NCBI GenBank assembly: GCA_963786395.1
Contig: CAWAZD010000014.1
Span: forward strand, 129,730 to 193,729
DNA from: an uncultured Ignavibacteriales bacterium
Lineage (GTDB): Bacteria; Bacteroidota; Ignavibacteria; Ignavibacteriales; Ignavibacteriaceae
Direction of reading: 5' to 3'
DNA: 64,000 nt
The notes beneath the pieces were generated by a model. The model saw only the letters and a program-made list of their open reading frames with translations, did not search any database and had not been told where the DNA came from. Position 1 is the stretch's first letter. Each line of letters starts with the position of its first letter. Of the stretch, positions 526 through 38,527 are shown piece by piece. A program made the translations under genes and the position numbers.

Positions 526-550
526 GGATTCCCGCTTTCGCGGGAATGAC
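526..550. repeat. Palindromic repeat module E (GGATTCCCGC-TTTC-GCGGGAATGAC)
   Basis: Hairpin-forming 25-mer. The same family recurs at 6351, 6389, 6672, 7827, 7977, 8303, 43685, 44473 and 50018. Confidence 0.8.
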
Positions 551-580: not shown

Positions 581-1810
581 TTATTTACCACCGATATATT
601 CTGAAACTCCGGTACCTGTACACCATTTATTCTGGTCGCGGTCAATTGAAACTGATATCAGTGAATTATCGGGCAATCCCGAATTGATAGTTGTATAAAT
701 TCTCCATCCTCTATTAAAATATTTTGCAAGTCCTGATTCTGATGTTACCCAGACGGCATTCTTATTATCAAAAGCAAAATCAGTTACTAAACTTCCCGGG
801 AAACCTGAATTATATCTATTAATATTAGACCACTTTGAATCTTTAAAGTAACTTAGACCGCCCGTTCCATTATCACCTATAAGCGGACTTCCTGTACCTA
901 CATATAACATTCCAGTATTATCAAATTTAATTGAACTGATGTAGTCATCAGAAAGCCCGGAATTAAAACTCGAATATACTGTCCAGATAAAGTTTTCATA
1001 TTTGATTATTCCTGCTCCCCACGTACCAACCCATAAAGCATTATTCGCGTCTACAGCAAGAGCTGAAATATTATCGGAAGAAAGTCCTGAATTTAACTTG
1101 TTGTATGACTTAAACGAGACACCATCAAACCTTAATAATCCAGAGGCGGTTCCAGCCCACACATTATTATTATGATCAATAGTAAGCGCGGTAATATTTT
1201 CATCTTCTATTTGTGAATTTGCAGAATTATATACCTTCCAGCCGGAGCCATCAAATCTGGCGAATCCATGATCTGTTCCTACCCAGATTGCATTATTGTC
1301 TATATATATATCATTAATCGTATTGCCGGGTAAGCCCGAGTTTGAATTATTATAAACGGTAAAAGAACTGCCGTCAAATTTTATTAGACCATTGTTTGTA
1401 GTACCAATCCATTTAATGTCAGATTTATCCACCCTTATTTTTGTCAGGTTGGTATTGGGTAAAGTACTGTTATGTGGCGTATAGATTTTCCACCAGTATT
1501 TAGGATCTTCTCTGAGTTCAACATAAATCGAATCCTCAACATTTCGTTTGAGCAGATAGTTTATCGTAGTATCAAGATAATTCTGCCGCTTCAAATCAAA
1601 TTTATAAAACCCCGGTTCAAGATCGGAAACTATAAAAGGGGTTACATTTCCTGCGAGCTGGTTATTAAAATAAATTGTAGCGCTATCAGGGCTCGTATAT
1701 AAGGCAACTTCGCTTTTCGTTAACCCGGGAACAACAGGCGGAACATCTTTACAGGAAATAAATTGAAGTACAATGAAAATTGTAATTAGAGCTAAATATA
1801 TTTTTTTCAT
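581..1810 (-). CDS. Lipoprotein with a PEGA-like N-terminal domain and Reg_prop-like beta-propeller repeats
   Basis: Signal peptide with a lipobox-like LQFISC. PEGA-like segment ATIYFNNQLAGNVTPFIVSDLEPGFYKF. About eight repeats of the pattern W[VA]GT..G[LF]..F.G. The ATG at 1810 overlaps the gdh stop (ATGA). Confidence 0.6.
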   Translation of the reverse strand: MKKIYLALITIFIVLQFISCKDVPPVVPGLTKSEVALYTSPDSATIYFNNQLAGNVTPFIVSDLEPGFYKFDLKRQNYLDTTINYLLKRNVEDSIYVELREDPKYWWKIYTPHNSTLPNTNLTKIRVDKSDIKWIGTTNNGLIKFDGSSFTVYNNSNSGLPGNTINDIYIDNNAIWVGTDHGFARFDGSGWKVYNSANSQIEDENITALTIDHNNNVWAGTASGLLRFDGVSFKSYNKLNSGLSSDNISALAVDANNALWVGTWGAGIIKYENFIWTVYSSFNSGLSDDYISSIKFDNTGMLYVGTGSPLIGDNGTGGLSYFKDSKWSNINRYNSGFPGSLVTDFAFDNKNAVWVTSESGLAKYFNRGWRIYTTINSGLPDNSLISVSIDRDQNKWCTGTGVSEYIGGK

Positions 1811-3054
1811 ACCCATCCGCGTAATTTACATGCCTCTGCTACTTTTGCAACACCCACTACCATTGCCGCCAGTCTTGGATGGACTTTCTTTTCCTTGACT
1901 GCCTCATGAACGCGGTGATATGCTTTTGTTAATTTCTGATCAAGTCTTTTATGCACAACGTCTTCTTCCCAGAAATATGAATATTTATCCTGTACCATTT
2001 CGAAATAAGACACAGTTACTCCACCGGCGCTTGCCAGTATATCGGGTATAACATGAATACCCTTTTTGCTTAAAATAATATCCGCATCGGGAGTAGTAGG
2101 ACCGTTTGCTAGTTCACATACAATCCGTGCCTTTATGTTATCGGCATTTGCTCCTGAAATTGCATTTTCAAGAGCCGCAGGATACAATATATTTACATCA
2201 AGTTCAAGAATATTATCGTGTGAAATGGATTTAGATCCCGGAAAATTTATTACACTTCCCGTTTTCAGTTTATGCTGCACTAATTCCTTCGAATCAAATC
2301 CGGCGGCATTGAAAATAGCACCCCGGGAATCACTTACGGCAATTAATTTACCTCCGCCAAGCAGTTCATGATGAAGCAGGGCGGCACGCTGACCCGCGTT
2401 TCCGAATCCCTGAATTGCGAATTTACCAAGCGGATCAACTCCAAGTAATTTACATGCTTCCTTTACAGTAATTACGCCTCCTCTTGCGGTGGCGTCTCTT
2501 CTTCCTTCCGTTCCTCCGATCTGCTGAGGTTTATCGGTAAACACTCCGGGCTGGTGCATATGAATAATGGTTTCATATTCATCCATCATCCATGCCATTG
2601 TTTGCGGGTTCGTGTAAACATCAGGCGCCGGAATATCTGAATTAACTCCTATAAACTGCGATATACCCCGGATATATCCTCTCGATAAATTTTCCAGTTC
2701 TCTCTCAGACATTGATTTTGGATTACACACTACTCCACCTTTACCGCCGCCAAGCGGAATATCTACTACTGCGGTTTTCCATGTCATCCATCCGGCTAAA
2801 GCTCTTATCGTATCAACAGTTTCATCAGGATGGAATCTAATACCTCCTTTGGCAGGACCTCTGGCTGTATTGTATTGAATCCTGTAAGCATGAAAAATTT
2901 TCACTTTCCCGTTGTCAAGTTTTACCGGGATGGTAAATTTAATCTCTCTCTGAGGCCAAATTAAAAGTTCAATAGTAGCTTCATCAAGGTTAAGAATTTT
3001 CGCGGCTTCAAGAATCTGCTGCTGCGCGACTCTGAATGAATTATATGATTCCAT
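1807..3054 (-). CDS. gdh: Glutamate dehydrogenase (Glu/Leu/Phe/Val dehydrogenase family, about 415 aa class)
   Basis: Signatures KGGIRFHP, IPLGGGKGGV (catalytic Lys loop) and the Rossmann motif QGFGNAGQ. The ATG is at 3054; the ORF-track first M is a TTG at 3057. Confidence 0.9.
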   Translation of the reverse strand: MESYNSFRVAQQQILEAAKILNLDEATIELLIWPQREIKFTIPVKLDNGKVKIFHAYRIQYNTARGPAKGGIRFHPDETVDTIRALAGWMTWKTAVVDIPLGGGKGGVVCNPKSMSERELENLSRGYIRGISQFIGVNSDIPAPDVYTNPQTMAWMMDEYETIIHMHQPGVFTDKPQQIGGTEGRRDATARGGVITVKEACKLLGVDPLGKFAIQGFGNAGQRAALLHHELLGGGKLIAVSDSRGAIFNAAGFDSKELVQHKLKTGSVINFPGSKSISHDNILELDVNILYPAALENAISGANADNIKARIVCELANGPTTPDADIILSKKGIHVIPDILASAGGVTVSYFEMVQDKYSYFWEEDVVHKRLDQKLTKAYHRVHEAVKEKKVHPRLAAMVVGVAKVAEACKLRGWV

Positions 3055-3254
3055 CAATCATTTTTTCCTATATCTGAATCTTTTATAGTTGGTTGTTCTT
3101 TATCGTACACATCTAAAAGTATCCTGTACCAGCAGTTCCGGCAGGTTAACGCACGGTCAACTCCCAGTAACACCTGCTGCCACGGGCTTAGCTTGTGCCC
3201 GCAATGAGGGCATGTGTCAAATATCTTTATTCTTTCCGGTTCTTTTGGACTCAA
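3054..3254 (-). CDS. Small 4-Cys zinc-ribbon protein
   Basis: 66 aa with two CxxC pairs (CPHC ... CRNC). The TTG start overlaps the upstream stop (TTGA), and its stop overlaps the gdh ATG (TGATG). Confidence 0.5.
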   Translation of the reverse strand: MSPKEPERIKIFDTCPHCGHKLSPWQQVLLGVDRALTCRNCWYRILLDVYDKEQPTIKDSDIGKND

Positions 3255-6200
3255 GTTATCTCCGGCTTTAAAATTACACCTTTATTCTTCTGTCCGTTCA
3301 TTTTAATTATGACTGGTTTCGAAAATTGTAAATGCTTTGTCAATGTCATCGATTCAACCGGCGTTTGTTTAAGCAGCCAGTTCCAGTTAATATATCCAAG
3401 GTCGTTCTGCGGATTTATTGTAAAATAACCTACCATAAAAGAAGTAATATTCTGGAAGAAATGCGAGCCCTGGGAGGGCGCTACAGCCATTTCTTTAAAC
3501 CCGGTTTCAATTATTGCTTTGGCGCCGGCTATCATTTCCCAGTTAACGGGTATACCTAACCAGGGATCAAGAGAACCCCACCTTCCAACACCAATAAGCA
3601 GGTACGGTCTTTTTTCCGCCATTAGTTTATTATTGAATAATCCCACTTCCTTTGCCACATCTCTGCTCTTTGATCTTTCAAACAAATGATAGTCAACAAG
3701 GACAATATCATAGATGTCTTTAATTATTCCGTTTCCTAAAACCTGCTGGCTCTGGCAGATAATATCTTCTTCTTTATAATCCTCAATATTCAGTTCTTCA
3801 AGTTCCCTGTTAACAACAAGGGGTCTCATCTGCAGTAATCCGAATTCCTTTGGAGCGCCGGGTTCAGTCTGAAGATTAACCGCGAACTCAATCTCAACGG
3901 GCGTTCCCATTCCCCATGTTCCCATATCAAGAAGCAGGTCTAGGATTTCAGGAAGCGGGAATAATTTATTTCTTAAAATAGGACCGAAAGTAACTACGCG
4001 TAATCCGTTCCTTGATAAACCATCATAGATTGCGTAGTTATCATGAATATAAGTTGAGCCAACCGGCGATAGAGTTCCATCTGACTCAGCCGTAGTTAAA
4101 TCAAATTGCTGTACTAACATATCATGCGTAACATAACCAAAGTCGGCATCACCATCCAGCATTAACGCGTAAAAATTTCTCTGACTGGTATCTAATGATT
4201 CCTCAACTGAATAAAACTGTATAAGGTCAGTGGGATATTTTGGACAGAAGCGCACAGTATTGCCGCCGTCAACAACTGTTTTACCCAACCCCAATGCTAC
4301 TGATACAATTCCGTCCTCCTGTTTTTGCGGTGGATGAGGATAAAAATTATACGATTTGGCTACACCCGAAAAGTCAGGATAAAATCTGTTATCATGATGG
4401 AAGCCCACCATCTTCTGAATTATAACAGCCATCTTTTCTTCTTCAAGACGATAAGAAGTTATTTTTATATAGTTCTTAGTGTTCTGATAAAATGTTGAAG
4501 CGAATACTCTTTTAATTGTATTAAGAAGCTGCCCTAACCTGATAAGTTTATTATGATGATTATTTGGCAGCATGTATGTCTGGTAAACGCCGGCAAAGGG
4601 ATGGTATTGTGAATCTTCCAAAAGACTGGAAGACCTGACAGCCAAAGGAGAGTGAATTATATCAAGAAACGCTGCAAGTTCGCCTAAAACATCTTCAGGA
4701 AATTTTTCAGCGTCAAGGAACCTTCTTGTAATCTCTTCATCATCATTGCAGTTTAACGCGAACTTCCTCAGATTATTTTCATCTATAAACTGGTCAAACA
4801 CATCAGTGCCAACAACTACAGCGGGGGGGACTTTGATCTGAATATCTTCAAACTTATCGCCGACATTGTAATTATTAATTAATGTATTCACAAAACCCAA
4901 ACCGCGGGCTTTACCGCCCAATGAACCGCCGCCTATCCTGGCAAAGCTTGATGTTGGATCGAAGGTCTCCTTTACAAAATCAGTAATTAATCCGCGCTGT
5001 CTTAAATGCCTGTACCCGTTAAGTGAATATATCAAGTCCTTTCGTAATCCTTCAACAGATTTATAATCTGATACTTTTCTTGGACGTAACTGGTGAGCAA
5101 GCCAGAATTCTGTTCTTGCCTTAAGCCAGTTGGAGAAATGATTTTTTTCCGCATGATATCTTATGCTTTCGTCCGGCACTACCGCAAGCTGTTCCTCAAG
5201 AGTTCTTAGATCCGCAGCCCTACCGACTTCCATTCCCTCGGGTGTTCTGAAAACAAAATCACCGAAACTGAAATAATAGTTCATGAACAACCGCAATTCA
5301 TTCAACAGGGTAGGGGATTCCTTCATAATGAATGACACATTTATATCGGCAGCCTTTCTGCTGTTTTCCTCAACATTTGAAAGAAGTAAAATAGGGATAT
5401 CGCTATGTTCCTTTTTAACTTCTTTGGCAAACTTAATACCTGCCTGCGGGTCATTTATTCCTTTATGTGGAAAATCAATATCGGAAATAATTCCTAATAT
5501 AAATTCTTTGTAGCGCGTATAATAATCCCATGCCTCTTCATAATTCAGACATAAAAGTATTTTGGGTCTTGCGCGCATCCTGAGGAATTTATGAGATAGA
5601 TTTATTCCTTCTGAAATTAACCTCTGCGATTGGTTTAGAATCTCTGTATAGATTATTGGCAGGAACGAGGAATAATATCTTATGTTGTCTTCAATTACTA
5701 TTACGGTTTGAACTCCCACCATTCTTGTATCGTGGTCTACATTCAGGAGATCCTCAAAATATTTTACTATCGCGATTATTATTCTGAAGTCGCCTTGCCA
5801 GATAAATATTTTATCAAATACATTATGGTCTTTGCTTGCAAGCAGGAGGTTCAATTCTTTATTGTCATGAGCCAGCAGGACTATGGGAATATTCAGTCCG
5901 GATTCCCGGATCATCTTCGCGAATACAACCGGGGGCATATCTTCTATATGAAGAGTGGTAATAATAAGATCAAAACGATGCTCTTCTTTAGCAAGCGCTA
6001 TTGCCTCGCTTCCGCTGCTTACCCTTGTCAGTTCGGGTGAATGACTTAAATTTAAACCCTGGTATTCATTTCTGATAAGTTCGTATAGGCGTCCATCCTC
6101 TTCAAACAAATACAAATCGTACAGACTTGACACGAGGAGGATGTCTCGCACTCTGAGGCGCATGAGGTTTTGGAAACCCTGGAACCGGTTACCATAACCG

Positions 6201-6256
6201 TGTTCCACCCACAGTGCGTCAAAATCATTCTTTATGTCATCAAAATTGGATTTCAT
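3251..6256 (-). CDS. Receiver-domain protein fused to a PPDK/PEP-synthase N-terminal (ATP-grasp, PEP/pyruvate-binding) domain; function unknown
   Basis: A degenerate receiver (ILLVSSLYD) is followed by a second receiver-like domain (VIVIEDN ... IISDIDFP). PPDK_N signatures follow: GGGSLGGKARGLGF, LAVRSSSLLEDS, FAGVYQT. I see no GGxTSHAAI swivel motif. A paralog lies at 32649..35627. Confidence 0.75.
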   Translation of the reverse strand: MKSNFDDIKNDFDALWVEHGYGNRFQGFQNLMRLRVRDILLVSSLYDLYLFEEDGRLYELIRNEYQGLNLSHSPELTRVSSGSEAIALAKEEHRFDLIITTLHIEDMPPVVFAKMIRESGLNIPIVLLAHDNKELNLLLASKDHNVFDKIFIWQGDFRIIIAIVKYFEDLLNVDHDTRMVGVQTVIVIEDNIRYYSSFLPIIYTEILNQSQRLISEGINLSHKFLRMRARPKILLCLNYEEAWDYYTRYKEFILGIISDIDFPHKGINDPQAGIKFAKEVKKEHSDIPILLLSNVEENSRKAADINVSFIMKESPTLLNELRLFMNYYFSFGDFVFRTPEGMEVGRAADLRTLEEQLAVVPDESIRYHAEKNHFSNWLKARTEFWLAHQLRPRKVSDYKSVEGLRKDLIYSLNGYRHLRQRGLITDFVKETFDPTSSFARIGGGSLGGKARGLGFVNTLINNYNVGDKFEDIQIKVPPAVVVGTDVFDQFIDENNLRKFALNCNDDEEITRRFLDAEKFPEDVLGELAAFLDIIHSPLAVRSSSLLEDSQYHPFAGVYQTYMLPNNHHNKLIRLGQLLNTIKRVFASTFYQNTKNYIKITSYRLEEEKMAVIIQKMVGFHHDNRFYPDFSGVAKSYNFYPHPPQKQEDGIVSVALGLGKTVVDGGNTVRFCPKYPTDLIQFYSVEESLDTSQRNFYALMLDGDADFGYVTHDMLVQQFDLTTAESDGTLSPVGSTYIHDNYAIYDGLSRNGLRVVTFGPILRNKLFPLPEILDLLLDMGTWGMGTPVEIEFAVNLQTEPGAPKEFGLLQMRPLVVNRELEELNIEDYKEEDIICQSQQVLGNGIIKDIYDIVLVDYHLFERSKSRDVAKEVGLFNNKLMAEKRPYLLIGVGRWGSLDPWLGIPVNWEMIAGAKAIIETGFKEMAVAPSQGSHFFQNITSFMVGYFTINPQNDLGYINWNWLLKQTPVESMTLTKHLQFSKPVIIKMNGQKNKGVILKPEIT

Positions 6257-6350: not shown

Positions 6351-6375
6351 GTCATTCCCGCGAAAGCGGGAATCC
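6351..6375. repeat. Palindromic repeat module E
   Basis: GTCATTCCCGCGAAAGCGGGAATCC, a perfect hairpin. Confidence 0.8.
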
Positions 6376-6579: not shown

Positions 6580-6732
6580 CCCAGGCATTTAGAGGCTGTG
6601 TGAATATTCTGAATTTATCATCTGGTTAAGAATTTCATATTTGAAATTTCTTTAATTTCAAATGATTTTATGGATTCCCGCCTTCGCGGGAATGACAATT
6701 TTAGATTTTCACACAGGCTCTTTATGCCTGGG
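6580..6732. mobile_element. MITE copy A: 129-bp core (6592..6720) with 13-bp terminal inverted repeats, TTTA duplication, inserted in the loop of palindrome A
   Basis: Left side reads CCCAGGCA-TTTA-GAGGCTGTGTGAA. Right side reads TTCACACAGGCTC-TTTA-TGCCTGGG. Removing the core plus one TTTA restores CCCAGGCATTTATGCCTGGG. The core is the exact reverse complement of 43661..43789. Confidence 0.8.
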
Positions 6733-7976: not shown

Positions 7977-8002
7977 GTCATCCCTGCGAAAGCGGGGATC
8001 CC
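7977..8002. repeat. Palindromic repeat module E
   Basis: GTCATCCCTGCGAAAGCGGGGATCCC. Confidence 0.8.
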
Positions 8003-8194
8003 TGAATAGTTCACACAATTACCTTTCGAATAGATTTTAAATGTGCTTTTAACCTGGTTCTGTGTCAGTTCCGTCTTGTTTCCGTCTTAGTTCTGTGTTA
8101 ATTGCAGGGGGTAGATTTCAGAAATTAAGAGGCGGGTTTTGATCATTTTTGAGAGCAAAAAAAAGTTGCCCCTCTGACTTATTATACATCCTTA

Positions 8195-8267
8195 CCCCTG
8201 TTTTCATGCACGTACCGGCTTATGCATGAAAATGGGGATGGGGATGTAGACAGCAGAATTGTAATAA
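8195..8267 (+). repeat. Left copy of a 62-bp direct repeat bracketing the R-M/kinase segment; also forms a 15-bp-stem hairpin
   Basis: 8206..8267 matches 15259..15320 at 57 of 62 positions by manual alignment. The arms CCCCTGTTTTCATGCA (8195..8210) and TGCATGAAAATGGGG (8223..8237) pair. Confidence 0.75.
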
Positions 8268-8302
8268 CACTCTCAATCATTTTATAATCTTTACCAAAGC
8301 CT

Positions 8303-8329
8303 GTCATCCCCGCGAAAGCTGGGATCCCC
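8303..8329. repeat. Palindromic repeat module E
   Basis: GTCATCCCCGCGAAAGCTGGGATCCCC. Confidence 0.75.
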
Positions 8330-8474
8330 TTATCTAACACATCCCTTGAAATATTTTGTCAATCTTCATTTCGCGAAGGATCGGCTTTGCCATCTTAAGG
8401 CCGTCTTAGTCCCCAACATTGTCCCGCCATTGTGCTAAGATTCAGCCCAAGTGATTAAAAAAAGATTATAAATA

Positions 8475-8554
8475 GGTCTTGTGGAGTCCTGAAAAAGGTC
8501 TTGCAGAGTCCTGAAAAGATCCTGCGGGGGTTATGAAAGTATCCTGAAATGATC
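8475..8554 (+). repeat. Tandem 21-22-bp repeat (about 3.5 units) with core TCCTGAAA
   Basis: GGTCTTGTGGAGTCCTGAAAAA / GGTCTTGCAGAGTCCTGAAAA / GATCCTGCGGGGGTTATGAAA / GTATCCTGAAATGATC. Confidence 0.65.
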
Positions 8555-8737
8555 ATTAAAAAAATGTTAGACTTAATCAAATGCTTTTTATAATTTGAAA
8601 GGTAATTTGTTTAATTATTGCGCAAATTGTGTGGGATCTAAAATTTTTTGTAATACAACACTTAAAAAGGTTGTTTTGGTTGGGAAGACAAACTTGTGGC
8701 AGTTAAGTAATACTACTAACAGAAAACAAACCATAAT

Positions 8738-11460
8738 ATGATAGAACTAAAACTCGAAGATTTTAAAATATCAGGATACTGCAATTGAAGCAGTTGTAAA
8801 GGTGTTTGAAGGAGTTGAGAAAAATACTTTTGATAACGCCTGTTTCGAGGGTATTCGTTCAAACATTTGCAAACTAACTTTAGCCGAATATTCTGCAAAA
8901 ATAAAGGCCATATATGAAGAAAACGGCATTGAAGAAAATATTGCCAAACCTTCTCCAGACAAAGATCTTTGCATTGAAATGGAAACCGGAACAGGTAAAA
9001 CACTTGTTTATCTAAAAACCATTTACGAATTATACAAACATTATGGCTTTACAAAGTTTATCATTCTTGTTCCTTCAGTTGCAATTCGGCAAGGAGTGTT
9101 AGGAACTCTGAAATCATTTGAAAAACAGCTTGATAGTATATACGGGTTTCAACCTAATTATTTTGAATATGAAAGTAAGAAGTTAAGCAAGGTAACAAAC
9201 TTCATCGAAGAACAGCACCCCTAGATAATGATTATGACTCTGGCTTCATTCAATTCTGAAGATAAAATCTTGAATCAGGCACAGCGAGAAGATTTGTTTG
9301 CAAATATTCCGTTTATAGATGCTATTGGAAAAACTAATCCCATAATTTTAATGGATGAACCGCAGGAAGGGATGGATACGCCCAATTCTGTTAGATGCAA
9401 ATTAGCTAAACTCAAACCGCTCATTAAAATTCGTTATTCCGCAACTCATAAAGTTGTTAAAAATCTTATATATCGTTTAACCCCCTACGATAGCTACAAA
9501 CAAGGATTTGTTAAAAAAATTGAAGTGCTTGACAGTTACTGAAAAGAATGATGAAGCAACCATTAAAATCGAATTAACTGAAGCCCAAAACGGTAAAGGT
9601 GATCCTAAGGTAAAACTAAAAGCATGGAGACTAAAAGCGGAAAGTTTGTCTTTGAAAATAACTGAAATGGTTAAAAGTTGGAGATAATCTTAGGAGAGAA
9701 AACAAACAATTCAAGTTATCTGAATTATAAGATTGAGCAAATAAATAAAAACCTGAGGGACAGGAAAATGGAGGGTAAAGTTCTCCAATGGTGCTGAATT
9801 GGTTGAAAAACAAGCCTCAGGAAATATTGAAAACATATGGGCTTTACAATTAGAATGGCTTATGCACCGTCATTTTACAAAATCCGCTAAAGCTAGTGAA
9901 AACACGGAATTAAATGTCTTAAGTTTGGTTTTCATTGACAGAGTTTCAAATTACATGGGTGAAGAACCCAGTAATTAAAAAACTTTTCATTGAGAAATAT
10001 AAAGCTATCTATCCGGAATACAACAAAGGGAAAAGTTCCGACTCCTCAACAGATTCAGGATGTACAAGGGTTATTACTTTGCTCAAACAGGCAAAGGGGA
10101 ATTTACGGATAGTGAAGGATGAATCAATGAGCAAAAAGAAATTTACGAATTGATCTTGCAAAAGAAAGAAGAATTACTATCTATTCGATAACTCTGTACA
10201 GTTTATTTTTTCTCATTCAGCTTTGGGAGTTGGTTGGGACAATCCTAACGTTTTTAAGATTGCCACTCTCAAACTTTCATATTCAGATATTAAAAAGCGA
10301 CAGGAAATAGGCAGGGGTTTGCGAATATGCGTTAATCAGAATGGTCAAAGCGTATATATGATGTGCTAAACGTTGAAGATACTGACCGCATCAATCAATT
10401 AACTGTGATTCCTAATGAAAACTTACGAAACATTTGTAACTCAGTATCAGGAAGAAATTAAAGCTGTTTACGGCAATACCAAAGCATGGTGCCGGTATGA
10501 CACATACACACAAAGGGAAGCCGCAGAATGAAGTGAGTTTCAAACGGAATGCCTCCGAAAATATAGATGAAGCTTTAGACGATTTTGGAAATCGTTAGCT
10601 AGAAAAACGGATTATATAATCGCTTTAATGAAGATAGTTTGATTAATACTTCTTCCGAGTGGATCAACTCATTAGTAATGCCTGATTATATAATAGAATT
10701 GAAGCAGTAGTCATATTGATTAGATTACTGAGGAAGTCAGACAGGATATATTTGGCGGTACTGAAACAGAATGCAAAAAGCTAGATTTTCTCCATTGGAT
10801 TTAGTTGAAGAACTAAGTGAAAACACTGGGATAAGCTATACGACACTTTTTAAGATTGTTAGCTCATTACTAATTTCGTTCAATTATAAAAAATCCACCT
10901 AGATATATTTACGAATCGACTGCTATTATTCGTAATATCGAATTAGACGAAATGCTTAGAGGTTTAGATTATCATTTAACTGGTGATAGTTTTCCTTTTG
11001 AGTTTTAACGATTTTATTAAAAATGTTTCTGAAATGCGTTTATGTTGATACGCCAAATAGAGGTGTATTTGATAAGATGCTGATTGATAGTGATATAGAA
11101 CTCTTATTTTGCAGATACCGACGGATGATGATCCGAAAGTGGTATGTTTTTTAAAACTACCGGCATGGTACAAGATTAAAACTCCCATAGGCGATTATGA
11201 ACCTGATTTCGGCTTGGTGATGAAACGAAAGAGCCTGAAAAGCGGTAGCTGAAAGCTGAGTTTTATTTCGTGATTGAAACAAAAGGAACAAACGATATCA
11301 ACGACAAGAAAGCGCTGACCGAAAGTGAAGTGTATAAAATTCGTTGCGCTATGAAGCACTTTGACCTTTAGGTGTGGAAGTTCATTACAAGGCACCTGTT
11401 AAAGAATACGGTTACTTTAAAACAGAAGCGGATAAAACAATTAACGCAATAGCAGGATAA
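8738..11460 (+). pseudogene. res: Type III restriction enzyme Res subunit (helicase plus endonuclease), heavily disrupted
   Basis: Fragments across all three frames carry helicase motif I (METGTGKT), motif II (LMDEPQ), motif VI (QEIGRGLR) and the C-terminal nuclease block (EPDFGLV ... FYFVIETKG). There are dozens of frameshifts and an in-frame TAG at 9225. Confidence 0.8.
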
Positions 11461-11468
11461 ATAAGACT

Positions 11469-13376
11469 ATGGAAAATCCTTAATGATTTTATGCCATTGA
11501 GCAATGATTGGAATAAAGAGCGTTTGAGATAGCTCTGAAAAGCCTGTTTCCTGATTTGTTTACAAACGAAGGTAGCCATAAACATTGATGAACTGAAAAA
11601 GTTAATTGATCCAGAAAGCATTACAGAAACAGAACGTTATGAGTTTAGATGGTTTGGTAAAAGCCAGGCAAAACGAAATGCATTCACTCCGACAAATGCT
11701 ACCTTGATCTATGACGAAAATAGAAGTGTTAACCCTTCAGAAAGCTGAAAACCTCATTATAGAAGGAGAGAATTTAGAAGTATTGAAATTACTCTCCAAT
11801 AGTTATCGTGAAAAAGTGAAGTGTATATATATAGATCCTCCATATAACATTGGAAATGATTTTGTTTACAGCGATAACTATTCTGAAGATAAGAAGCCTT
11901 ATTGGGAACAAACTGGTGTGACAGAAAACGGTGTTAAGATTGATACCAATACTGAAACAGATGGAAGATTTCACAGCAATTGGTTAGATATGATATATAG
12001 TCGTTTACTAATTGCTAGAGCTTTGCTCAAAACTGAAGGAGTAATTTTTGTCTCCATTGATGATACCGAAGTTACCAACTTGAGGAAATTAATGGATGAG
12101 GTTTTTGGCGAGGATAATTTTGTTTCAATATTTGTCTGGAAATCAAGACAAAATAAAGACAATAGAAATACAACAGGCGCATCAATCGATCATGAATATG
12201 TGATTTGTTATTCAAAGAATAATGAATCAAAAGCACTAAAAGGCAGTGAAAGAAAAACCGAACAATATTCAAATCCAGATAATGATCCGAGAGGAGATTG
12301 GACAAGCGGAAATATGGTTGGTATTCTTCCTGAAAATTTAAGACCGAATTGTCATTACGATTTAATCAATCCCCAAACGGCATTAATTACAGGAAAGCAG
12401 AGATGGGGTGGAGATATGATAAAAACACAATGAATCGATTTGATAGAGGAAGACAGAATTCTTTAGCCAAGCGATATGTTATGGAAGACCAAGAAGGAAA
12501 ATGTTCTCAAATGAATTATTAGATAGTTATGCTGGGTTTACTTCTATTATTGGGGAAAATATTTATACAAGAAATGGCACCCAAGAAATTGAAGAGTTAT
12601 TTGGTGCAAAAGTTTTTGACTTTCCAAAGCCTTCTGCTTTAATTGAAGAATTAAATTGATCAAGTTTGTGAGGATAATGATTTAATTCTTGATTTTTTTG
12701 CTGGTTCTGGCTCAACAGGTCAAGCAAAATGTGAACTAAACCAGCAGAATGGAAGAAGGTTAAGATTTATACTTACTCAGATAGCCGAAACAATAGACCC
12801 CAAAAGTGAGGCATACATAGCTTGTTACAAAAAAATCAGTGACATCACTATTGAACGGAACAAACGTTTTGTGGAAAAGCTTATTGATGAACAAGAAAAA
12901 GCAGCATCCCGATTTATTTACAAACGAAAACAAACAGAATTCTATTAAAGGGCTTGGCTTTAAGGTATTTAAACTTGTCAAATCAAATTTCCCCAGAGTA
13001 GAATGGGCTCAGAATACCGAAAGCTCAGCAGAAGAAAATATAGTAACCCTTAAACAATATATTAAGGATAAAGAAGCACAATTAGTGACCCCCTTCAATC
13101 ATGATGAATTAATAACTGAAATTCTGTTAAAGAATGGCTTCACCTTGAATTACAAAATTGAAAAAACAGCCCGAACTTAAGAAGAACGAAATGTTTTTAT
13201 CAACTGATGGCGAAAAAGAAACATTGATCTGTCTTGATATTTCAATAGATATGGAAAGAGTTGAATATTTTAAAAAGAATATTGAAAAGAAGTTCATTTG
13301 CCTTGAACGATCATTAGATACAACAAAAAAATGGAACCTGAAACACTATTTGGGCGAAAAATTTAAGGCGTTTTAA
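11469..13376 (+). pseudogene. mod: Type III-like N6-adenine DNA methyltransferase Mod subunit, disrupted
   Basis: Motif IV is IYIDPPYN (11.84 kb) and motif I is DFFAGSGSTGQA (12.69 kb), in beta-class order. The reading frame is broken many times between 11469 and 13376. Confidence 0.75.
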
Positions 13377-13427
13377 CCAATATTATTCTTTTAGTTGAAA
13401 GCAGAAATAAGGTCAACTGGTTTGCCT

Positions 13428-14543
13428 ATGAACATTGGTGATATACTAGACAAAAAGTATAAAATTCTCAAGCGACTCGGTCTTGGTGGGTTTGGTATAG
13501 TATACCTTGCTGAAGACAAACTAGCAAAAAGAAATGTTGCTATAAAGGCCCTTCTGGAAAAAGAAAATTTAAATCAAGAGGATTTAGTACGAGAGATCGA
13601 GTTTCTTGCTTCCCTAAACCATAAATCGATTGTTACATTTTATCATCATTTTTTTAACAATAAGATCCTTCACCTGGTTATGGAATATTGCAAGGGTGGT
13701 AATCTTGATGACCTGATTGAATCAAAAAACAAGTTGTCTGTTGATGAAGCAGTAAAAATTGCCATAGATATTTGCGATGTGTTTATTTTTATTCATAAAA
13801 ATAATATCATACACAGAGATATAAAACCTAGAAATATTCTAATTGACTCAGATGATAATATAAAGGTTTCGGATTTTGGAATCGCCAATACTCATAGCGG
13901 GACGCCAATATATTTAGCCCCAGAAGTTTATTCTGCTCAATATGATTCTAGTAGGGATCCCCGCGTCGATATATATGCACTTGGAATCACACTTTTAGAA
14001 ATGATTAATGGTTTCAATCCTTTCCATCGGTTAGATGGACAAGCAATGCTTGCATATAAATTTAGTCATACTTTTATACCAACTACTTTACCGCAATGGT
14101 TGCAGGCAATTATTTTAAATTCAACTCACCCAATTCCGGAATTAAGATTTCAAACTGCTATTGAATTTAAACAAGCTTTATTATCCAAAAGTGTTCCATT
14201 TATTATCAATAAAGAACGTATAAAAATTGACGGTACCTTTGAAATAGCAAACAAATATTTACTTAAAAAGAACTGGCATAAATCAATTACTTACATTGAG
14301 CAAGGATTAGAAAGCCATATTGATTCTGCATTAGGTTTAATGTCTGCGGGAAAGTATTATCTAAAAATACATAGACTTGATAAAGCAAAAATGTATTTAG
14401 ACCGGGCAATTAAAATCAATCCGGGTGTAACAACCAAAAAGGAACTTGCCGAAATTCATATTGTATACCCGGGATTATTCATTAGCGATTTCTCTCCTTC
14501 AAAACCATCTCCAGCTCAATCCAACCGATTGGGAAGCCTATAA
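13428..14543 (+). CDS. Ser/Thr protein kinase with C-terminal TPR repeats (probably the 5' part of one kinase-TPR-FHA gene)
   Basis: Hanks kinase motifs GLGGFGIVY, VAIKAL, HRDIKPRNIL, DFG and APE. I prefer the ATG at 13428 over the TTG at 13395. Confidence 0.8.
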   Translation: MNIGDILDKKYKILKRLGLGGFGIVYLAEDKLAKRNVAIKALLEKENLNQEDLVREIEFLASLNHKSIVTFYHHFFNNKILHLVMEYCKGGNLDDLIESKNKLSVDEAVKIAIDICDVFIFIHKNNIIHRDIKPRNILIDSDDNIKVSDFGIANTHSGTPIYLAPEVYSAQYDSSRDPRVDIYALGITLLEMINGFNPFHRLDGQAMLAYKFSHTFIPTTLPQWLQAIILNSTHPIPELRFQTAIEFKQALLSKSVPFIINKERIKIDGTFEIANKYLLKKNWHKSITYIEQGLESHIDSALGLMSAGKYYLKIHRLDKAKMYLDRAIKINPGVTTKKELAEIHIVYPGLFISDFSPSKPSPAQSNRLGSL

Positions 14544-15141
14544 TCTTCTTGTTGAATGTTTCTATAAAATGGAAAGATTTGATACAGCTCTGGAGGTTTT
14601 AGAAGCGATTATGCCCGAAGCAAAGCAGGACTGTTTTTGGAACAATTGGTTACTGATGAAATACTTAATCGAGGATGAATATCTGGAACTATCTAGCTAT
14701 GCAGCGCAAAAAGTTAAGTCAAGACATTTTATTGAAACAAATCTTAATATAATGAGGGATTTGAATAACTTTCTTATTAACACTGACGGTCCCCATAACA
14801 AACTATTATATCAGGATTATCGGTTTCACAAATATTTATCCATAAATACAATTGTCATTCAAGATATAAAGGGCCGGAAGAGGGAATTTAATAAACCTAT
14901 AATAACAATAGGTAGAAATAAGGATAATGATTATTATATAGATAATAATTCGGTTAGTCGAAGAAGTTGTGTAATTGTAAATTATCCCAATGACGTCTGG
15001 ATTTATGATATGGGAAGCATATCAAACATCATTATTGACGATAAAGAAATTGTGCAAAAACAATTCTTATTAGGAAAACATAAAATTCGCTTAAATGATT
15101 ATTCCTTTGATCTATATACGAGTGAAGGTTTATTAATATGA
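14446..15141 (+). CDS. TPR plus FHA domain protein (probably the 3' part of the kinase gene, +1 frame)
   Basis: TPR helices (YSLAISLLQNHLQLNPTDWEAYNLL). FHA core ITIGRNKDNDYYIDNNSVSRRSCVIV ... WIYDMGSISNIIID. The frame is open from 14431 and overlaps the kinase ORF. Confidence 0.7.
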   Translation: MPKFILYTRDYSLAISLLQNHLQLNPTDWEAYNLLVECFYKMERFDTALEVLEAIMPEAKQDCFWNNWLLMKYLIEDEYLELSSYAAQKVKSRHFIETNLNIMRDLNNFLINTDGPHNKLLYQDYRFHKYLSINTIVIQDIKGRKREFNKPIITIGRNKDNDYYIDNNSVSRRSCVIVNYPNDVWIYDMGSISNIIIDDKEIVQKQFLLGKHKIRLNDYSFDLYTSEGLLI

Positions 15142-15254
15142 ATAGGAATTTTATCAATAAATCATGGTGTTGCAATAAAATGAAACGTACTCGAAATATA
15201 ACGGTTATTATGGCTTGTTTAACGAGTGTTTTCCTAAATAATAAGGGGATTCAT

Positions 15255-15320
15255 CCCCATGCACGTAACGGCTTATGCATGAAAATGGGGATGGGGATGT
15301 ACACACCAGTATTTTAATAA
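15255..15320 (+). repeat. Right copy of the 62-bp direct repeat bracketing the R-M/kinase segment
   Basis: See 8195..8267. This copy lacks the left hairpin arm. Confidence 0.75.
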
Positions 15321-15378
15321 TATTTTAACGAAATTAGACCTAATGGCTTGATAAATAAATTAAATTAAAGGTTCTGTT

Positions 15379-15705
15379 ATGAAATGGCCAAAGAAGCACA
15401 CAAAAAATCTTATATATAAAGCTCTTATAAATACATCGCCAAAAACTGAAGATCAATTAATAAACGCGGCGATTGCACTTGCAGTTAAAAAACAGTTTTA
15501 TGAATTTGATTCCGAACAAGATCAGGAAGCAGTATTTGCAAACCTTGACAGTAAAGATCAGAGTCATATTGCTGAAGTGGTCAAAGAGGTTATTAAAGAT
15601 TTAAATGAAAAGGAATTGCTTAGGGTAAATCCGGATACAGCAGTATCTCTAACAGCAGACGGTATATATTTCGTTTTAAATCGGCTGCCTAAAAACTATT
15701 TTTAG
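15379..15705 (+). CDS. Hypothetical protein
   Basis: 108-aa ORF with an ATG start. No motif recognised. Confidence 0.4.
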   Translation: MKWPKKHTKNLIYKALINTSPKTEDQLINAAIALAVKKQFYEFDSEQDQEAVFANLDSKDQSHIAEVVKEVIKDLNEKELLRVNPDTAVSLTADGIYFVLNRLPKNYF

Positions 15706-15739
15706 GCAGTGTCAAAAGCAGTCTCACGCGCAAAAGGTT

Positions 15740-16108
15740 TTATTTTTTTAATTCAATAAGCAGCATATGAATTTTGGTTTTCCCAATATTCTCTGTGGTA
15801 TGAGTAGTTGCATCCAGCCAAAGAGTCTCTCCTTTCTTGAATACAGTAGTTTTGGTTTTTCCATCCGGAGAAGTAGCTTTGGATTTTCCTCCTTCAAACA
15901 CATAAATAAGATAATCGGGATGTGAGTGCATTCCGGTTTTCTCACCCGGAATATTCGAATGATCAATAACCCTGACTTTTTCGTTATCGAGAACAATCTT
16001 ATAATGTGCAGGGTCTACTTTTGTTACATCCTGTGCTTTTAGTAATACAGGTGAAGATAGGATGAAACAAAAAAGAATTAATATGAGGTAATTTAATCTT
16101 TTGAACAT
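15740..16108 (-). CDS. Secreted cupin-domain protein
   Basis: Signal peptide. Cupin motif GMHSHPDYLIYVFEGG. Confidence 0.6.
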   Translation of the reverse strand: MFKRLNYLILILFCFILSSPVLLKAQDVTKVDPAHYKIVLDNEKVRVIDHSNIPGEKTGMHSHPDYLIYVFEGGKSKATSPDGKTKTTVFKKGETLWLDATTHTTENIGKTKIHMLLIELKK

Positions 16109-25138: not shown

Positions 25139-26528
<1,390 letters not shown>

Positions 26529-28399: not shown

Positions 28400-28427
28400 A
28401 ATATTGCTCCAATTTGCAGAATTCTAG

Positions 28428-28574
28428 CCCAGTCCTTCAGGACTGGGTAAATGGAATAAAGTAATAAATAACTATGCCATTTATGGCATTAATAAAACAA
28501 TTTAATTGTAAGGGGATGAATCCCCTAAATTTACAATTAGTTTTTTCCTATAGTCCCAGGCATAAATGCCTGGG
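28428..28574. repeat. Block of palindromic modules B, D, C and A
   Basis: CCCAGTCCTTCAGGACTGGG, ATGCCATTTATGGCAT, AAGGGGATGAATCCCCT and CCCAGGCATAAATGCCTGGG, in tandem. Confidence 0.75.
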
Positions 28575-32648: not shown

Positions 32649-35627
32649 TCATTTGCCCGGTTTCAGGATTATTCCCTTATTCTGGTGTCCGTTTATTCTT
32701 ACATTTATTGGCTGGTTAAACCTGATATGTTTTGTGAAATTTAACACTTTCACAGCCGGCATTGCGTTTAACCAATCCCAATTAATAAACCCAAGATGTT
32801 CATATTCGTTTACTGTAAAGTATCCTACTTTAAATGAAGTAATATTCTGAAAGAAATGACTACCCTGAGAGGGTGTAACATTAAAATCCTTAAATCCGGA
32901 TTCAACTATTACACTCGCACCCGATATCTGGTCCCATGTAACGGGTATCCCCAGCCAATGATCTAAACTTCCCCAACGCCCTACACCAATAAGTATATAT
33001 GGTCTTTTCTGTTCCAACAATTCCGAATTAAGTTTGCTTACTTCCATAGCAACATCGCGGCTCTTCCCGCGGTCAAAAGTCTGTATGTCTACCATTACAA
33101 TATCATAAATATCGGTGATCGCTCCGTTGCCCAGTACCTGCGTACTTTGACAAATGAGATCTTCTTTTTCAAAATTATCTACTTCAAGCTCTTCTATTTC
33201 ACGGCTTATTACCAGAGGACGCATCTGCAGCATTGCGAATTCCTTAGGCTTGCCCGGCTGGACTTTCATATTTACCGCGAATTCAATTTCTACAGATACC
33301 CCCATCCCCCATGAACCCAACTCAAGTAGGACATCAAGAATTTCCGCGAGAGGAAATAAATTGTGCTTTAATATCGGAGCGAATGTAACTACGCGGTTCC
33401 CCTTTCTTGAAGTACCGTCATATACGGAATCATTTTCAGCCGAATAAGTTGACCCCACATAATTTAATGTCTGGTCCTTTTCTGAAACTATAAGTTCGTA
33501 CTTTACAACCAGTTCTTCAGGGTTATCATCAGATGTATGTTTCAATCTACCATTTAAATTCAACGCATAGAAAAACTGCTGCGCATTTTTAATTGTCTCT
33601 TTTGTTGAAAAGAATTGCAGCAAATGCTTCGGGTATTTTGGACAGAACCGAACACAGTTGCCTCCGTCTACAACTGTCTTTCCTAATCCTAATGCCGCAA
33701 GTGCAATACCGTCTGTTGATTTCTGCGGAGGCACCGGGTAAAAATTAAATGATTTTGCAACGCCCGAAAAATCAGGGTAAAATCTTTCATCATGCGGTGC
33801 GCCTACAAGGCGCTGGATTATAACTCCCATCTTTTCTTCTTCAAGCCGGTATGCGGTCATTTTCATGTAATCCTTAGCCGACTTAAAAAAAGTAGACGCG
33901 TAAACGCACCTGATGCATTCTAATAATTCCTGCAGCCGTATTTCAATTTCGCTGTTGTTATTGGGCAGCATGTATGTTTCATATACACCGGCAAACGGCT
34001 GGAATTGTGAGTCCTCTAATAAACTGGATGATCTTACTGCAAGAGGTTCTTTTATTATCTCAAGAAAATCCCGGAGCTTTTTCAATATATCTAAGGGGAA
34101 ATACTGTGCCTCAAGGAATTTTTTAATTATTAATTTGTCATCAGTTTCATTTAACGCAAAATTTTCCAGATGATTTACTTCAAGGAAATGGTCATATACA
34201 TCTGTTGCTATTACAACAGCCGAGGGTACTGTTATAGCGACATCGTCAAACATATCCCTTATGTTATAATCATTTATTAACTTATTAATAAATCCAAGAC
34301 CCCGTGCCTTGCCGCCTAATGAACCGCCACCTATGCGCGCAAAACTGTTATTGGCGTCAAATATTTCCTTGTTAAAATCAGTAATTACACCTTGCTGTCT
34401 TATCTGCTGATAAATTTTAAGTGAATCGATCAGCTCTTTCCTTAACTCCGAAATGGATTTAAAATCTGATACTTTTCGAGGTCTTAGTCTATAAGCTAAC
34501 CAGAATTCCGTTCTTGCCTTTAGCCAGTTAGAAAAATGATTCCTTTCTGAATGATAAAAAATACTTTCATCCGGTACTATGTGAAGCTGTTCTTCTAATG
34601 ATTTTAAATTGTTTGCCCTGCCAACAATCTGACCCTGCATATTATAAAAAACAAAATCACCGAATCCGAAACGGTCTAAAATAAATTCCCGCAGCTCATG
34701 CAGCAAGCGGGGTGAGTTTTTCTGTATGAATGATGCCCCTATGTCATGAGCGGCTTTTTCATATTCGGTTGTGCTTGACTGCAGCAGTATAGGGATATCC
34801 TTATGTTCTTTTTTAACAGCAAGCGCAAATTTCAATCCGGCTTCAGGATCTCTCTCACCGCCTTTCTTAAAATTATTATCTGTAATTATTCCAAGTATTG
34901 AATCCTGATATTTTTCATAATAACTCCACGCTTCTTCATATGTGGTGCACAAAAGTATTTTTGGTCGTGCACGCATACGCAAAAATTTATGCGTGATATT
35001 TACACCCTCGGATAATAATCTCTGCGACTGTTTAAATATCTCCGTGTAAATAATCGGCAGATAGGACGAATAAAATTTAATGTTATCTTCTACAAGAATA
35101 ATTGCCTGGACACCGACTTTTAATATGTCGTTCTCCGCGTTCATTTTGTCTTCGGCATATTTCGTAATTGCAATAAGTAACCGGTAGTCGCCCTGCCAGA
35201 TAAATACTTTGTCAAAAATGGAAGTGTCGTAAAAACTTTGTAATTCCTTTCTTTCCTTGTTATCGTAGGCGAGCAGAATTATCGGTGTGTTGATCCCTTT
35301 CTCTTTAATTTTATTAGCAAACTTAACCACATGCATATCTTCAATATGCAAAGTTGTTATTATCAGGTCAAACGGAACATCATCAAAAAGTTCAAGAGCT
35401 TCTTCTCCCATTGTTACATGAGTAATTTCCGGTGCCTGGCTTAAATTTAAAGCCTGGTATTCTTCACGTATCAGCTCGTATAATCTTCCATCCTCTTCAA
35501 AAAGATAGTTGTCGTATAAACTTGATACAAGCAGAATTTCCCTTATCTTATGCCGCATAAGTTTCTGGAAATTATTATACTTGTTTACTACTGCACTTTC
35601 AATTTTGAGCTGGCTGAGTTTATCCAT
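32649..35627 (-). CDS. Receiver-domain / PPDK_N ATP-grasp protein, paralog 2
   Basis: Collinear with 3251..6256 over its full length, roughly two-thirds identical by eye. It has the same motifs (ILLVSSLYD, ILVEDN, GGGSLGGKARGLGF, LAVRSSSLLEDS, GVGRWGSLD, PSQGSHFFQNITSF). Confidence 0.75.
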   Translation of the reverse strand: MDKLSQLKIESAVVNKYNNFQKLMRHKIREILLVSSLYDNYLFEEDGRLYELIREEYQALNLSQAPEITHVTMGEEALELFDDVPFDLIITTLHIEDMHVVKFANKIKEKGINTPIILLAYDNKERKELQSFYDTSIFDKVFIWQGDYRLLIAITKYAEDKMNAENDILKVGVQAIILVEDNIKFYSSYLPIIYTEIFKQSQRLLSEGVNITHKFLRMRARPKILLCTTYEEAWSYYEKYQDSILGIITDNNFKKGGERDPEAGLKFALAVKKEHKDIPILLQSSTTEYEKAAHDIGASFIQKNSPRLLHELREFILDRFGFGDFVFYNMQGQIVGRANNLKSLEEQLHIVPDESIFYHSERNHFSNWLKARTEFWLAYRLRPRKVSDFKSISELRKELIDSLKIYQQIRQQGVITDFNKEIFDANNSFARIGGGSLGGKARGLGFINKLINDYNIRDMFDDVAITVPSAVVIATDVYDHFLEVNHLENFALNETDDKLIIKKFLEAQYFPLDILKKLRDFLEIIKEPLAVRSSSLLEDSQFQPFAGVYETYMLPNNNSEIEIRLQELLECIRCVYASTFFKSAKDYMKMTAYRLEEEKMGVIIQRLVGAPHDERFYPDFSGVAKSFNFYPVPPQKSTDGIALAALGLGKTVVDGGNCVRFCPKYPKHLLQFFSTKETIKNAQQFFYALNLNGRLKHTSDDNPEELVVKYELIVSEKDQTLNYVGSTYSAENDSVYDGTSRKGNRVVTFAPILKHNLFPLAEILDVLLELGSWGMGVSVEIEFAVNMKVQPGKPKEFAMLQMRPLVISREIEELEVDNFEKEDLICQSTQVLGNGAITDIYDIVMVDIQTFDRGKSRDVAMEVSKLNSELLEQKRPYILIGVGRWGSLDHWLGIPVTWDQISGASVIVESGFKDFNVTPSQGSHFFQNITSFKVGYFTVNEYEHLGFINWDWLNAMPAVKVLNFTKHIRFNQPINVRINGHQNKGIILKPGK

Positions 35628-37173: not shown

Positions 37174-38527
<1,354 letters not shown>

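Follow-up and report, generated by a model that had tools for sequence, protein, structure and literature searches.

A receiver-bearing PPDK-type ATP-grasp protein encoded next to glutamate dehydrogenase, and its possible role in modifying that enzyme

What is a protein that joins two receiver domains to the nucleotide-binding half of a dikinase doing just upstream of a glutamate dehydrogenase (GDH) gene? The question arises at one end of a 64,000-nucleotide stretch of contig CAWAZD010000014.1 (the window), from an uncultured Ignavibacteriales bacterium, where such a protein of 1001 amino acids (aa), labelled BIG, is followed on the minus strand by a 66-aa zinc ribbon protein (ZNR) and by a GDH, gdh3. 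GDH stands where carbon and nitrogen metabolism meet, and to our knowledge little is known about the post-translational switching of bacterial GDHs beyond a few special cases, especially among coexisting isoenzymes. The BIG-ZNR-GDH arrangement recurs in essentially all of 80 related genomes, far beyond what chance would produce, and proteins of the BIG type adjoin GDH genes in hundreds of genomes spread over many phyla; from this linkage we infer that BIG probably acts on GDH, or on the reaction that GDH catalyses, by covalent modification. The genes of the locus, each an open reading frame (ORF) on the minus strand, are as follows.

3251..6256, minus strand: BIG, 1001 aa, made of a pseudo-receiver, a receiver, a linker, a PPDK_N ATP-grasp domain and a C-terminal module (C-module), identified from the ORF, Pfam, an AlphaFold2 (AF2) model and Foldseek
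3054..3254, minus strand: ZNR, a 66-aa Cys4 zinc ribbon with CPHCG ... CRNCWY and a variable charged tail
1807..3054 (ORF to 3057), minus strand: gdh3, a 415-aa glutamate dehydrogenase of the archaeal/short hexameric type (Pfam, NCBIfam)
581..1810 (ORF to 1816), minus strand: a lipoprotein with PEGA and a Reg_prop propeller (Pfam)

Linkage of BIG to glutamate dehydrogenase

Reading of the DNA bore out the preliminary description of this locus as four minus-strand ORFs overlapping by 1-4 nt, and every motif quoted there was found in the sequence. At the BIG/ZNR junction (acTTGAgt) the BIG stop codon TGA occupies 3253-3251 and the TTG start of ZNR lies at 3254; the ZNR ORF contains no internal Met. 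At the next junction (gatTGATGgaa) the ZNR stop (3056-3054) and the ATG of gdh3 (3054-3052) have one base in common, while at the third (gtATGAaa) the GDH stop (1809-1807) is overlapped by the lipoprotein ATG (1810-1808). A hairpin scan found no terminator-like hairpin on the minus strand within 581-6256. The gdh3 product matches the Pfam families ELFV_dehydrog_N (PF02812, E 1.7e-55) and ELFV_dehydrog (PF00208, E 2.8e-70) and scores 548 bits with the NCBIfam model GdhA_Arch, under the equivalog cut-off of 750.

Scanning for BIG loci with one genome per species yielded 557 loci, and the neighbours of the best 80, all from Ignavibacteria, were mapped by tblastn of the window proteins; the fractions given here for Ignavibacteria loci are of subsets of these 80. 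A GDH of the gdh3 type lies no more than 600 nt downstream of BIG in 72 of 72 loci (198 nt in the window, on the same strand, with ZNR alone between), and a GdhA-type GDH lies directly upstream of BIG in 65 of 73. A ZNR-type ORF separates BIG from GDH in 79 of 80 loci, with median gaps of 1 nt on the BIG side and 2 nt on the GDH side. The preliminary description had proposed a four-gene unit. Its BIG-ZNR-GDH part recurs in the relatives; the PEGA lipoprotein (whose Pfam domains are PEGA and Reg_prop repeats) had no tblastn homolog 3' of GDH in any of the 80 loci, and the conserved unit therefore comprises three genes, not four. The lipoprotein was rejected as a member of the system and is probably a local passenger.

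ZNR is conserved in its core (CPHCGxKLSPWQQVLLSVDRALxCKNCWYRIILD) and variable in its Lys/Glu-rich tail. The two knuckles (CPHC ... CxxC) are retained in 79 orthologs, and the protein is predicted from sequence to be a zinc ribbon; it scores below threshold with the zinc-ribbon models of Pfam and belongs to no Pfam family. As a stand-alone protein of 60-77 aa it is represented by 529 clusters, the named ones all from Ignavibacteria or Bacteroidota metagenome-assembled genomes, and it was not seen outside this lineage. Thus, of the linkages looked for in homologs, that to gdh is kept across many phyla (see below) and that to ZNR within Ignavibacteria.

The three-gene unit belongs to a larger arrangement. 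Many relatives have a contiguous same-strand array in the order gdhA1, BIG paralog, gdhA2, BIG, ZNR, gdh3, where the paralog sits between gdhA1 and gdhA2, directly upstream of BIG, and gdhA2 immediately precedes BIG. In the window these genes keep their ancestral order but are dispersed by insertions:

37174..38515, minus strand: gdhA1, a GdhA-type GDH and upstream partner of the paralog, with a +1 frameshift near 38193
36214-37074, plus strand: a gene with a type IX secretion (T9SS) sorting signal, between gdhA1 and the paralog
32649..35627, minus strand: BIG paralog, 992 aa, 62% identical to BIG over its full length and of identical architecture
30719-32212: a Mutator-family transposase, between the paralog and gdhA2
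27770-30026: a PAS histidine kinase and a LuxR-type regulator, between the paralog and gdhA2
26533-27600: a BBP2 porin, between the paralog and gdhA2
25142..26501, minus strand: gdhA2, a GdhA-type GDH, with a +1 frameshift in an A-run near 26095

In the window gdhA2 is displaced from BIG by ~19 kb, the interval comprising about 17 kb of other DNA and an aldo-keto reductase gene before BIG-ZNR-gdh3. BIG, the paralog and gdh3 are intact. The window's BIG-ZNR-gdh3 block is thus a dispersed remnant of the larger array. As a separate observation, each gdhA gene of the window is split by a single extra A ('cttAgca' near 38193 in gdhA1, an A-run near 26093-26097 in gdhA2), so that the two may be pseudogenes or products of assembly indel errors. 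A fourth GDH paralog, sharing 35-42% identity with gdh3, was also noticed in many Ignavibacteria loci, often convergent just 3' of gdh3 (L003, L009, L014, L018, L019, L021 and others) and in some cases 5' (L053, L055, L059, L060). Up to four GDH genes thus cluster with two BIG paralogs in these relatives; the window has three.

Linkage to GDH was also found in other phyla. Of seven distant homologs inspected singly, five were adjacent to GDH: a 975-aa homolog (locus L081) upstream of GDH and near genes for a 2-oxoglutarate dehydrogenase complex; a 586-aa core with no receivers and a 4-nt overlap with the stop codon of the GDH that precedes it; a 1639-aa tandem core and a 1024-aa homolog, each downstream of GDH; and a 1023-aa protein made of receiver, PPDK_N and C-module (P0279, locus L089), directly 3' of GDH and with a divergent glutamine synthetase gene adjacent. 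Genes for Cdc6/ORC-like and CDC48 proteins on the contig that bears this last protein point to an archaeal host. When metagenomes were scanned with receiver-less cores as seeds, 46 loci of this kind were recovered. GDH lies directly upstream of the core in 34 of the 35 whose flank is visible, and a 1068-aa partner protein (PPDK_N, C-module and nucleotidyltransferase) lies directly downstream in 31 of 32; just beyond the partner, many of these loci have a metallophosphatase homolog. The named members come from Aminicenantes, Deferrimicrobium, Omnitrophota, Phycisphaerae, Thermoanaerobaculia and Zixiibacteriota. Overall, two different GDH subfamilies are linked to PPDK_N + C-module proteins. None of the long homologs inspected had GDH fused to the core, an arrangement that would have amounted to Rosetta-stone evidence.

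Two side observations concern these loci. Many uncultured bacterial phyla possess a conserved module: a GDH of 428 aa, the 586-aa core, a Pol-beta partner of ~1070 aa and often a metallophosphatase, the last commonly on the opposite strand, with start and stop codons that often overlap (L083, 6718-13835; L084, L086, L090-L135); the first ~340 residues of the partner have no Pfam match. Locus L088 (370-7823) presents two tandem full-length BIG homologs of 1004 and 997 aa that overlap by 8 nt; they are preceded by a metallophosphatase gene and a RidA-family (Ribonuc_L-PSP) gene, and no GDH occurs in the visible flank.

An ATP-grasp domain followed by a new module

The domains of BIG were delimited with Pfam and with an AF2 model built from an alignment of 68 diverse homologs (pLDDT 87.1, pTM 0.74); a first model from a shallow alignment (pLDDT 47.5) was unusable, and Foldseek searches with it were flooded by receiver domains. 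Residue conservation was counted in the same 68-sequence alignment, ~54-55 sequences of which cover the receivers.

5747..6151, minus strand: REC1, pseudo-receiver, residues ~36-170 (Pfam Response_reg; (beta-alpha)5 fold in the AF2 model)
5273..5713, minus strand: REC2, canonical receiver, residues ~182-328, with E189, D190, D259 (codon 5480-5482), S293 and K312
4967..5269, minus strand: small alpha/beta linker domain, residues ~330-430, with weak similarity to DUF5752
3773..4924, minus strand: PPDK_N ATP-grasp domain, residues 445-828, with K449, R541, E547, D548, E788, E790, Q809 and R811
3254..3772, minus strand: C-module, a new domain of 173 aa, residues 829-1001, with the motifs LIGxGRWGSxDPWLGIPVxW ... 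E917 ... PSQG[ST]HFFQN

The ATP-grasp domain matches PPDK_N (PF01326) with an E-value of 2.5e-38 over profile positions 3-324 of 328. Six residues (K449, R541, E547, D548, E790, Q809) are invariant in all of the 67-68 homologs covering each site, and three more are nearly so (R811 in 67/68, E788 in 66/68, R451 in 63/67); judged by these residues, the domain therefore looks catalytically competent. The likeness to PEP synthase and PPDK (PpsA, PpdK) extends to homology of PPDK_N and identity of the nucleotide- and Mg-binding residues, and in BIG too a His-bearing domain directly follows the ATP-grasp, in the position of the swivelling phosphohistidine domain. Here the resemblance ends. As the preliminary description had held, Pfam and NCBIfam find no PEP-utilizers_C TIM barrel in BIG, where the chain ends 173 residues after PPDK_N, and Pfam finds no PEP-utilizers (PF00391) swivel domain. 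BIG further differs from PEP synthase and PPDK in its coupling to GDH and in the tandem receiver at its N-terminus, and it has S-x-G-[ST]-H-F-F where they have GG-x-TSHAA, with no detectable similarity to PEP-utilizers.

That BIG is an ordinary PEP synthase or PPDK extended at its N-terminus can be dismissed with near certainty: its homologs are annotated as 'PEP/pyruvate-binding domain-containing protein' and NCBIfam PEP-synthase models do match residues ~466-665, yet the models for PEP synthase, PigC and rifampin phosphotransferase align to the ATP-grasp alone and score 30-65 bits against cut-offs of ~600-1350, and neither the PEP-utilizers domain nor the TIM barrel is present. A PPDK N-terminus occurs separately in the window (62630-64000, plus strand; PPDK_N, E 6.9e-58). 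The preliminary description had spoken of a genuine ppdK there; the gene does begin at 62630, and it exits the window just before the catalytic His motif, the remainder lying outside.

Residues 821-1001 were searched against 1.84 billion cluster representatives. The C-module was matched in 1514 proteins (896 at E<=1e-10), whose lengths cluster near 1000 and 580 aa, with some of 1500-1650 aa. In every protein scanned it comes directly after PPDK_N, and the evolutionary unit is therefore a core of ~580 aa made of PPDK_N and C-module. What precedes this core is variable; some of the proteins are tandem duplications and some have a C-terminal nucleotidyltransferase of the Pol-beta type. In a set of 126 diverse modules, as in the 68-sequence alignment, G889, G891, R892, W893, G894, G901, P903, E917, S928, G930, H932, F933 and F934 are 98-100% conserved; H932, G889, R892, W893, G894, E917, S928 and G930 are invariant in 68 of 68 sequences. 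Second cores, in tandem and in partner proteins, are more divergent, yet they too retain the invariant residues. We propose this core as a new, GDH-associated family, marked by GxGRWG[ST] ... E ... SxG[ST]HFF right after PPDK_N; the component domains of BIG otherwise belong to known superfamilies. That the paralog shares a C-terminal module of unrecognised type had been noticed before and held up, since Pfam returned nothing for the two paralogous C-modules or for 30 diverse members at E<=10, PF00391 included. A profile search of PDB sequences gave spurious longin-domain matches alone (E 0.015-0.04).

The position of H932 (codon 3461-3463; motif S-x-G-[ST]-H-F-F) deserves attention, as it lies where PPDK and PEP synthase have their phosphohistidine domain. 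In the AF2 model H932 starts a helix after a parallel strand, and the elements follow one another as a hairpin, a long helix, b-a-b-a-b and a terminal hairpin ending in DG..G; on comparison with PDB sequences, this order parallels that of the swivelling b/b/a phosphohistidine domain. Judged by position, modelled topology and the invariant His, the C-module may be a cryptic phospho-carrier domain; comparison of sequences revealed no homology to swivel domains. The earlier statement that BIG has no swivel domain thus stands as far as profile and structure searches go, which recovered neither a complete swivel nor a TIM barrel, and is softened by the presence of an invariant-His module in the swivel position.

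The N-terminal half also matches its first description as a receiver devoid of the acidic pocket followed by an intact one, according to both the AF2 model and the homolog alignment. In Foldseek searches of the PDB with the second model the receivers match the tandem receivers of PleD (E 2e-8). The Pfam match of REC1 to Response_reg is marginal (residues 73-133, 32 bits). At the positions of CheY D12/D13, D57, T87 and K109 it has S43/S44, T101, A129 and W153; in 54 homologs these pocket positions are never acidic and W153 is invariant. REC2 has a weak Pfam match (E 0.011), and in the model E189, D190, D259, S293 and K312 are placed at the ends of strands b1, b3, b4 and b5 of a (beta/alpha)5 fold; these residues are kept in 45-53 of ~55 homologs. 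The acidic pair, phospho-Asp, Ser/Thr and Lys of response regulators are thus all found in REC2 and none in REC1. PleD likewise places a receiver and a pseudo-receiver ahead of an enzymatic output; in BIG the order is reversed, with the pseudo-receiver first, and the output is a dikinase-like ATP-grasp instead of a GGDEF cyclase. The linker, scanned alone, matches DUF5752 over residues 346-413 (E 4.2e-5, 23.4 bits), as it does in the homologs P0206 and P0279. No conserved kinase gene was seen in the Ignavibacteria gdh/BIG arrays.

A possible GDH-modifying enzyme and its alternatives

To account for these features, we tentatively propose, rating its chances somewhat short of even, that BIG is a two-component-gated enzyme of the dikinase type that modifies GDH by phosphotransfer through H932. 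The pseudo-receiver and the phosphorylatable receiver (D259) would form a PleD-like tandem gating the catalytic part; the ATP-grasp would load phosphate from ATP onto H932, and H932 would hand it to an acceptor. A macromolecular acceptor is proposed because the core has no TIM barrel or other acceptor-binding domain. This acceptor would be the neighbouring GDH, its activity tuned post-translationally on a histidine-kinase signal, and ZNR would serve, in Ignavibacteria only, as an adaptor linking BIG to the GDH that follows. The idea of a GDH modifier is drawn from gene context alone. What the analysis establishes is the architecture of BIG, the conservation of its catalytic residues and of H932, the operon-like packing and the depth to which proximity to GDH is conserved; H932 phosphotransfer, the identity of the acceptor and the part given to ZNR are inferences.

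Glutamine synthetase with GlnE, and isocitrate dehydrogenase with AceK, are pairs of target and covalent modifier, and together with PDRP (acting on PPDK) they offer a functional analogy: an ATP-using reversible regulator encoded near its target. The nucleotidyltransferase fusions of the partner proteins recall the Pol-beta-type domains of GlnE; apart from that fold there is no relationship in sequence or structure with these systems, and modification of GDH is here a proposal. The nucleotidyltransferase and metallophosphatase companions of receiver-less cores fit a reversible covalent modification, whose enzyme repertoire they match. It is possible, if doubtful, that PPDK_N + C-module cores amount to a widespread, unrecognised system of ATP-dependent covalent GDH modification, a GDH counterpart of GlnE built on a protein dikinase with a new type of phosphohistidine domain; equally doubtful is the combined picture in which this system would take the form of a nucleotidyltransferase-fused core and metallophosphatase in many phyla, and of two-component control plus ZNR in Ignavibacteria.

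BIG-type enzymes, encoded beside GDH in many bacterial phyla and once on a contig of archaeal appearance, are a concrete candidate for the missing control of GDH. Were the proposal correct, a central enzyme would prove to have a regulatory system of a new kind, response regulators would gain a new output class, and the dikinase mechanism known from PPDK and PEP synthase would be extended to a new kind of acceptor or, failing that, to a new carrier domain. It would also give a function to thousands of proteins labelled 'PEP/pyruvate-binding domain-containing' or 'CheY-like'; the names that databases attach to BIG homologs are these two and 'hypothetical'.

Several points weigh against the proposal. 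Every characterised PPDK_N dikinase known to us acts on a small molecule or a glucan, none on a protein. Gene adjacency cannot tell the GDH protein from a metabolite of its reaction as the target. Comparison of the C-module with swivel domains by hhalign gave a probability of 0.2-0.3% (with one PPDK swivel sequence and with an alignment of six verified domains, 0.3% in the latter case, where the DG..G tail alone aligned), and among the Foldseek matches listed for the second AF2 model there were ATP-grasp and receiver matches and none for the C-module. Among remote receiver-bearing homologs GDH is directly upstream in 10 of 25, and 10 of 19 have no GDH within 6 kb. The neighbours of these GDH-less homologs are heterogeneous (2-oxoacid:ferredoxin oxidoreductase at L147, a peptide transporter, rubrerythrin), and a search among them for a common alternative neighbour came to nothing. 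Finally, full-text searches of the literature yielded no paper on the BIG family, its architecture or its linkage to GDH, in keeping with the earlier statement that no function has been characterised for this architecture; a mention of PPDK_N in ProFaNA concerns SelO neighbourhoods.

The main rival is that BIG is a small-molecule dikinase at the 2-oxoglutarate/glutamate/NAD(P)H node, catalysing ATP + X + H2O -> AMP + X-P + Pi with a metabolite or cofactor as X, in the manner of PEP synthase, phenylphosphate synthase, AcvAB/CreHI or rifampin phosphotransferase (RPH); the phosphate would be taken off at a later step by a metallophosphatase, and the receiver would do no more than turn the pathway on. 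We consider this rather improbable; several points speak for it. As far as we know, the PPDK_N enzymes characterised to date all use a His intermediate to phosphorylate small molecules or glucan, and the best structural match of the BIG ATP-grasp is the ATP-binding domain of RPH (5hv1, E 1.5e-12; isolated domain 5hv6_A, TMt 0.69), that domain alone being aligned over 390-427 columns; Foldseek also matches HpeI (9goj). RPH and the split dikinases (phenylphosphate synthase, AcvAB, CreHI, HpeHI), to which BIG is likened here, work in three steps via a His intermediate. Some of these enzymes have a phosphatase dedicated to them, a part that the metallophosphatase may play in the receiver-less GDH-linked clusters; AcvAB works with AcvF (bioRxiv 10.1101/2022.04.28.489975). 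That two distinct GDH subfamilies are coupled is easier to reconcile with a metabolite common to both than with a common protein surface. Moreover, 2-oxoacid:ferredoxin oxidoreductase adjoins some GDH-less homologs (L147), the GDH-linked L081 lies near the 2-oxoglutarate dehydrogenase complex, and RidA is encoded beside the L088 tandem pair. Against this, RPH and the split dikinases possess a recognisable swivel and a substrate-binding domain or subunit, and none is receiver-gated or GDH-linked, whereas the 586-aa minimal cores have no substrate-binding domain, nor any other acceptor-binding one, beyond ATP-grasp and C-module. No known pathway requires a phosphorylated intermediate beside GDH, and tandem receivers and nucleotidyltransferase fusions typify signalling or modifying enzymes rather than catabolic ones.

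Alternatively, BIG could be a phosphorelay or energy sensor in which the ATP-grasp/His part autophosphorylates and passes the phosphate to a receiver Asp, in its own REC2 or in another protein; by analogy with EI-Ntr it would report ATP or nitrogen status, and its control of GDH would be indirect, by way of binding or expression. One chain does contain both an invariant His and a canonical receiver, no acceptor-binding domain is present, and the pTM of 0.74 suggests that the model is a compact multi-domain assembly. Enzyme I of the phosphotransferase system gives phosphate from its swivel His to a protein, and EI-Ntr is tied to glutamine and 2-oxoglutarate sensing; these enzymes differ from BIG in using PEP and a TIM barrel, not an ATP-grasp, and no homology with the C-module was detected. 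Cores devoid of receivers, however, have the invariant His and are still linked to GDH (34/35), and the receiver is therefore not an obligatory acceptor. BIG has no DNA-binding or other output domain, and the PAS histidine kinase and LuxR-type regulator of the window (27770-30026) sit in inserted DNA, absent from the arrays of relatives. A phosphorelay is accordingly unlikely.

Less still can be said for a conserved neighbourhood with no direct coupling, such as a co-regulated nitrogen island in which BIG acts on an unrelated target. The absence of a nearby GDH from about half of the remote receiver-bearing homologs agrees with it, as does the preservation of the BIG and paralog ORFs in a window where insertions have split the array. 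Yet abutting or overlapping adjacency persists across phyla, architectures and two GDH subfamilies, and a GDH would fall within 6 kb of a random gene by chance in <1% of cases (a rough estimate from 1-3 copies per 3-4 Mb genome). Given this depth of conservation, chance or mere co-regulation is unlikely, and we think it very improbable that BIG and GDH are neighbours only. Modification of GDH remains, with the reservations given, our preferred if tentative reading.

Repeated palindromes and a degraded region in the window

A perfect palindrome, ATTCCCGC-N4-GCGGGAAT, has four intergenic copies in the window, where chance predicts 0; the BIG-ZNR-gdh3-PEGA block is flanked by three of them.

528..547, no strand assigned: ATTCCCGC-N4-GCGGGAAT hairpin, just 3' of the four-gene block, terminator-like on the minus strand
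6354-6373 and 6674-6693: further copies, in the 507-nt gap upstream of BIG
43688-43707: a further copy

The element resembles a hairpin of the repetitive extragenic palindrome (REP) or terminator kind, and a relative of its sequence appears to underlie a spurious ORF at 8182-8340 ('IPAFAGMT'). The stretch 8000-16000 has lower G+C and many short, broken-looking ORFs, few of them longer than 150 aa; a helicase/restriction-like fragment at 8802-9224 is an example. This region may be degraded or foreign DNA.

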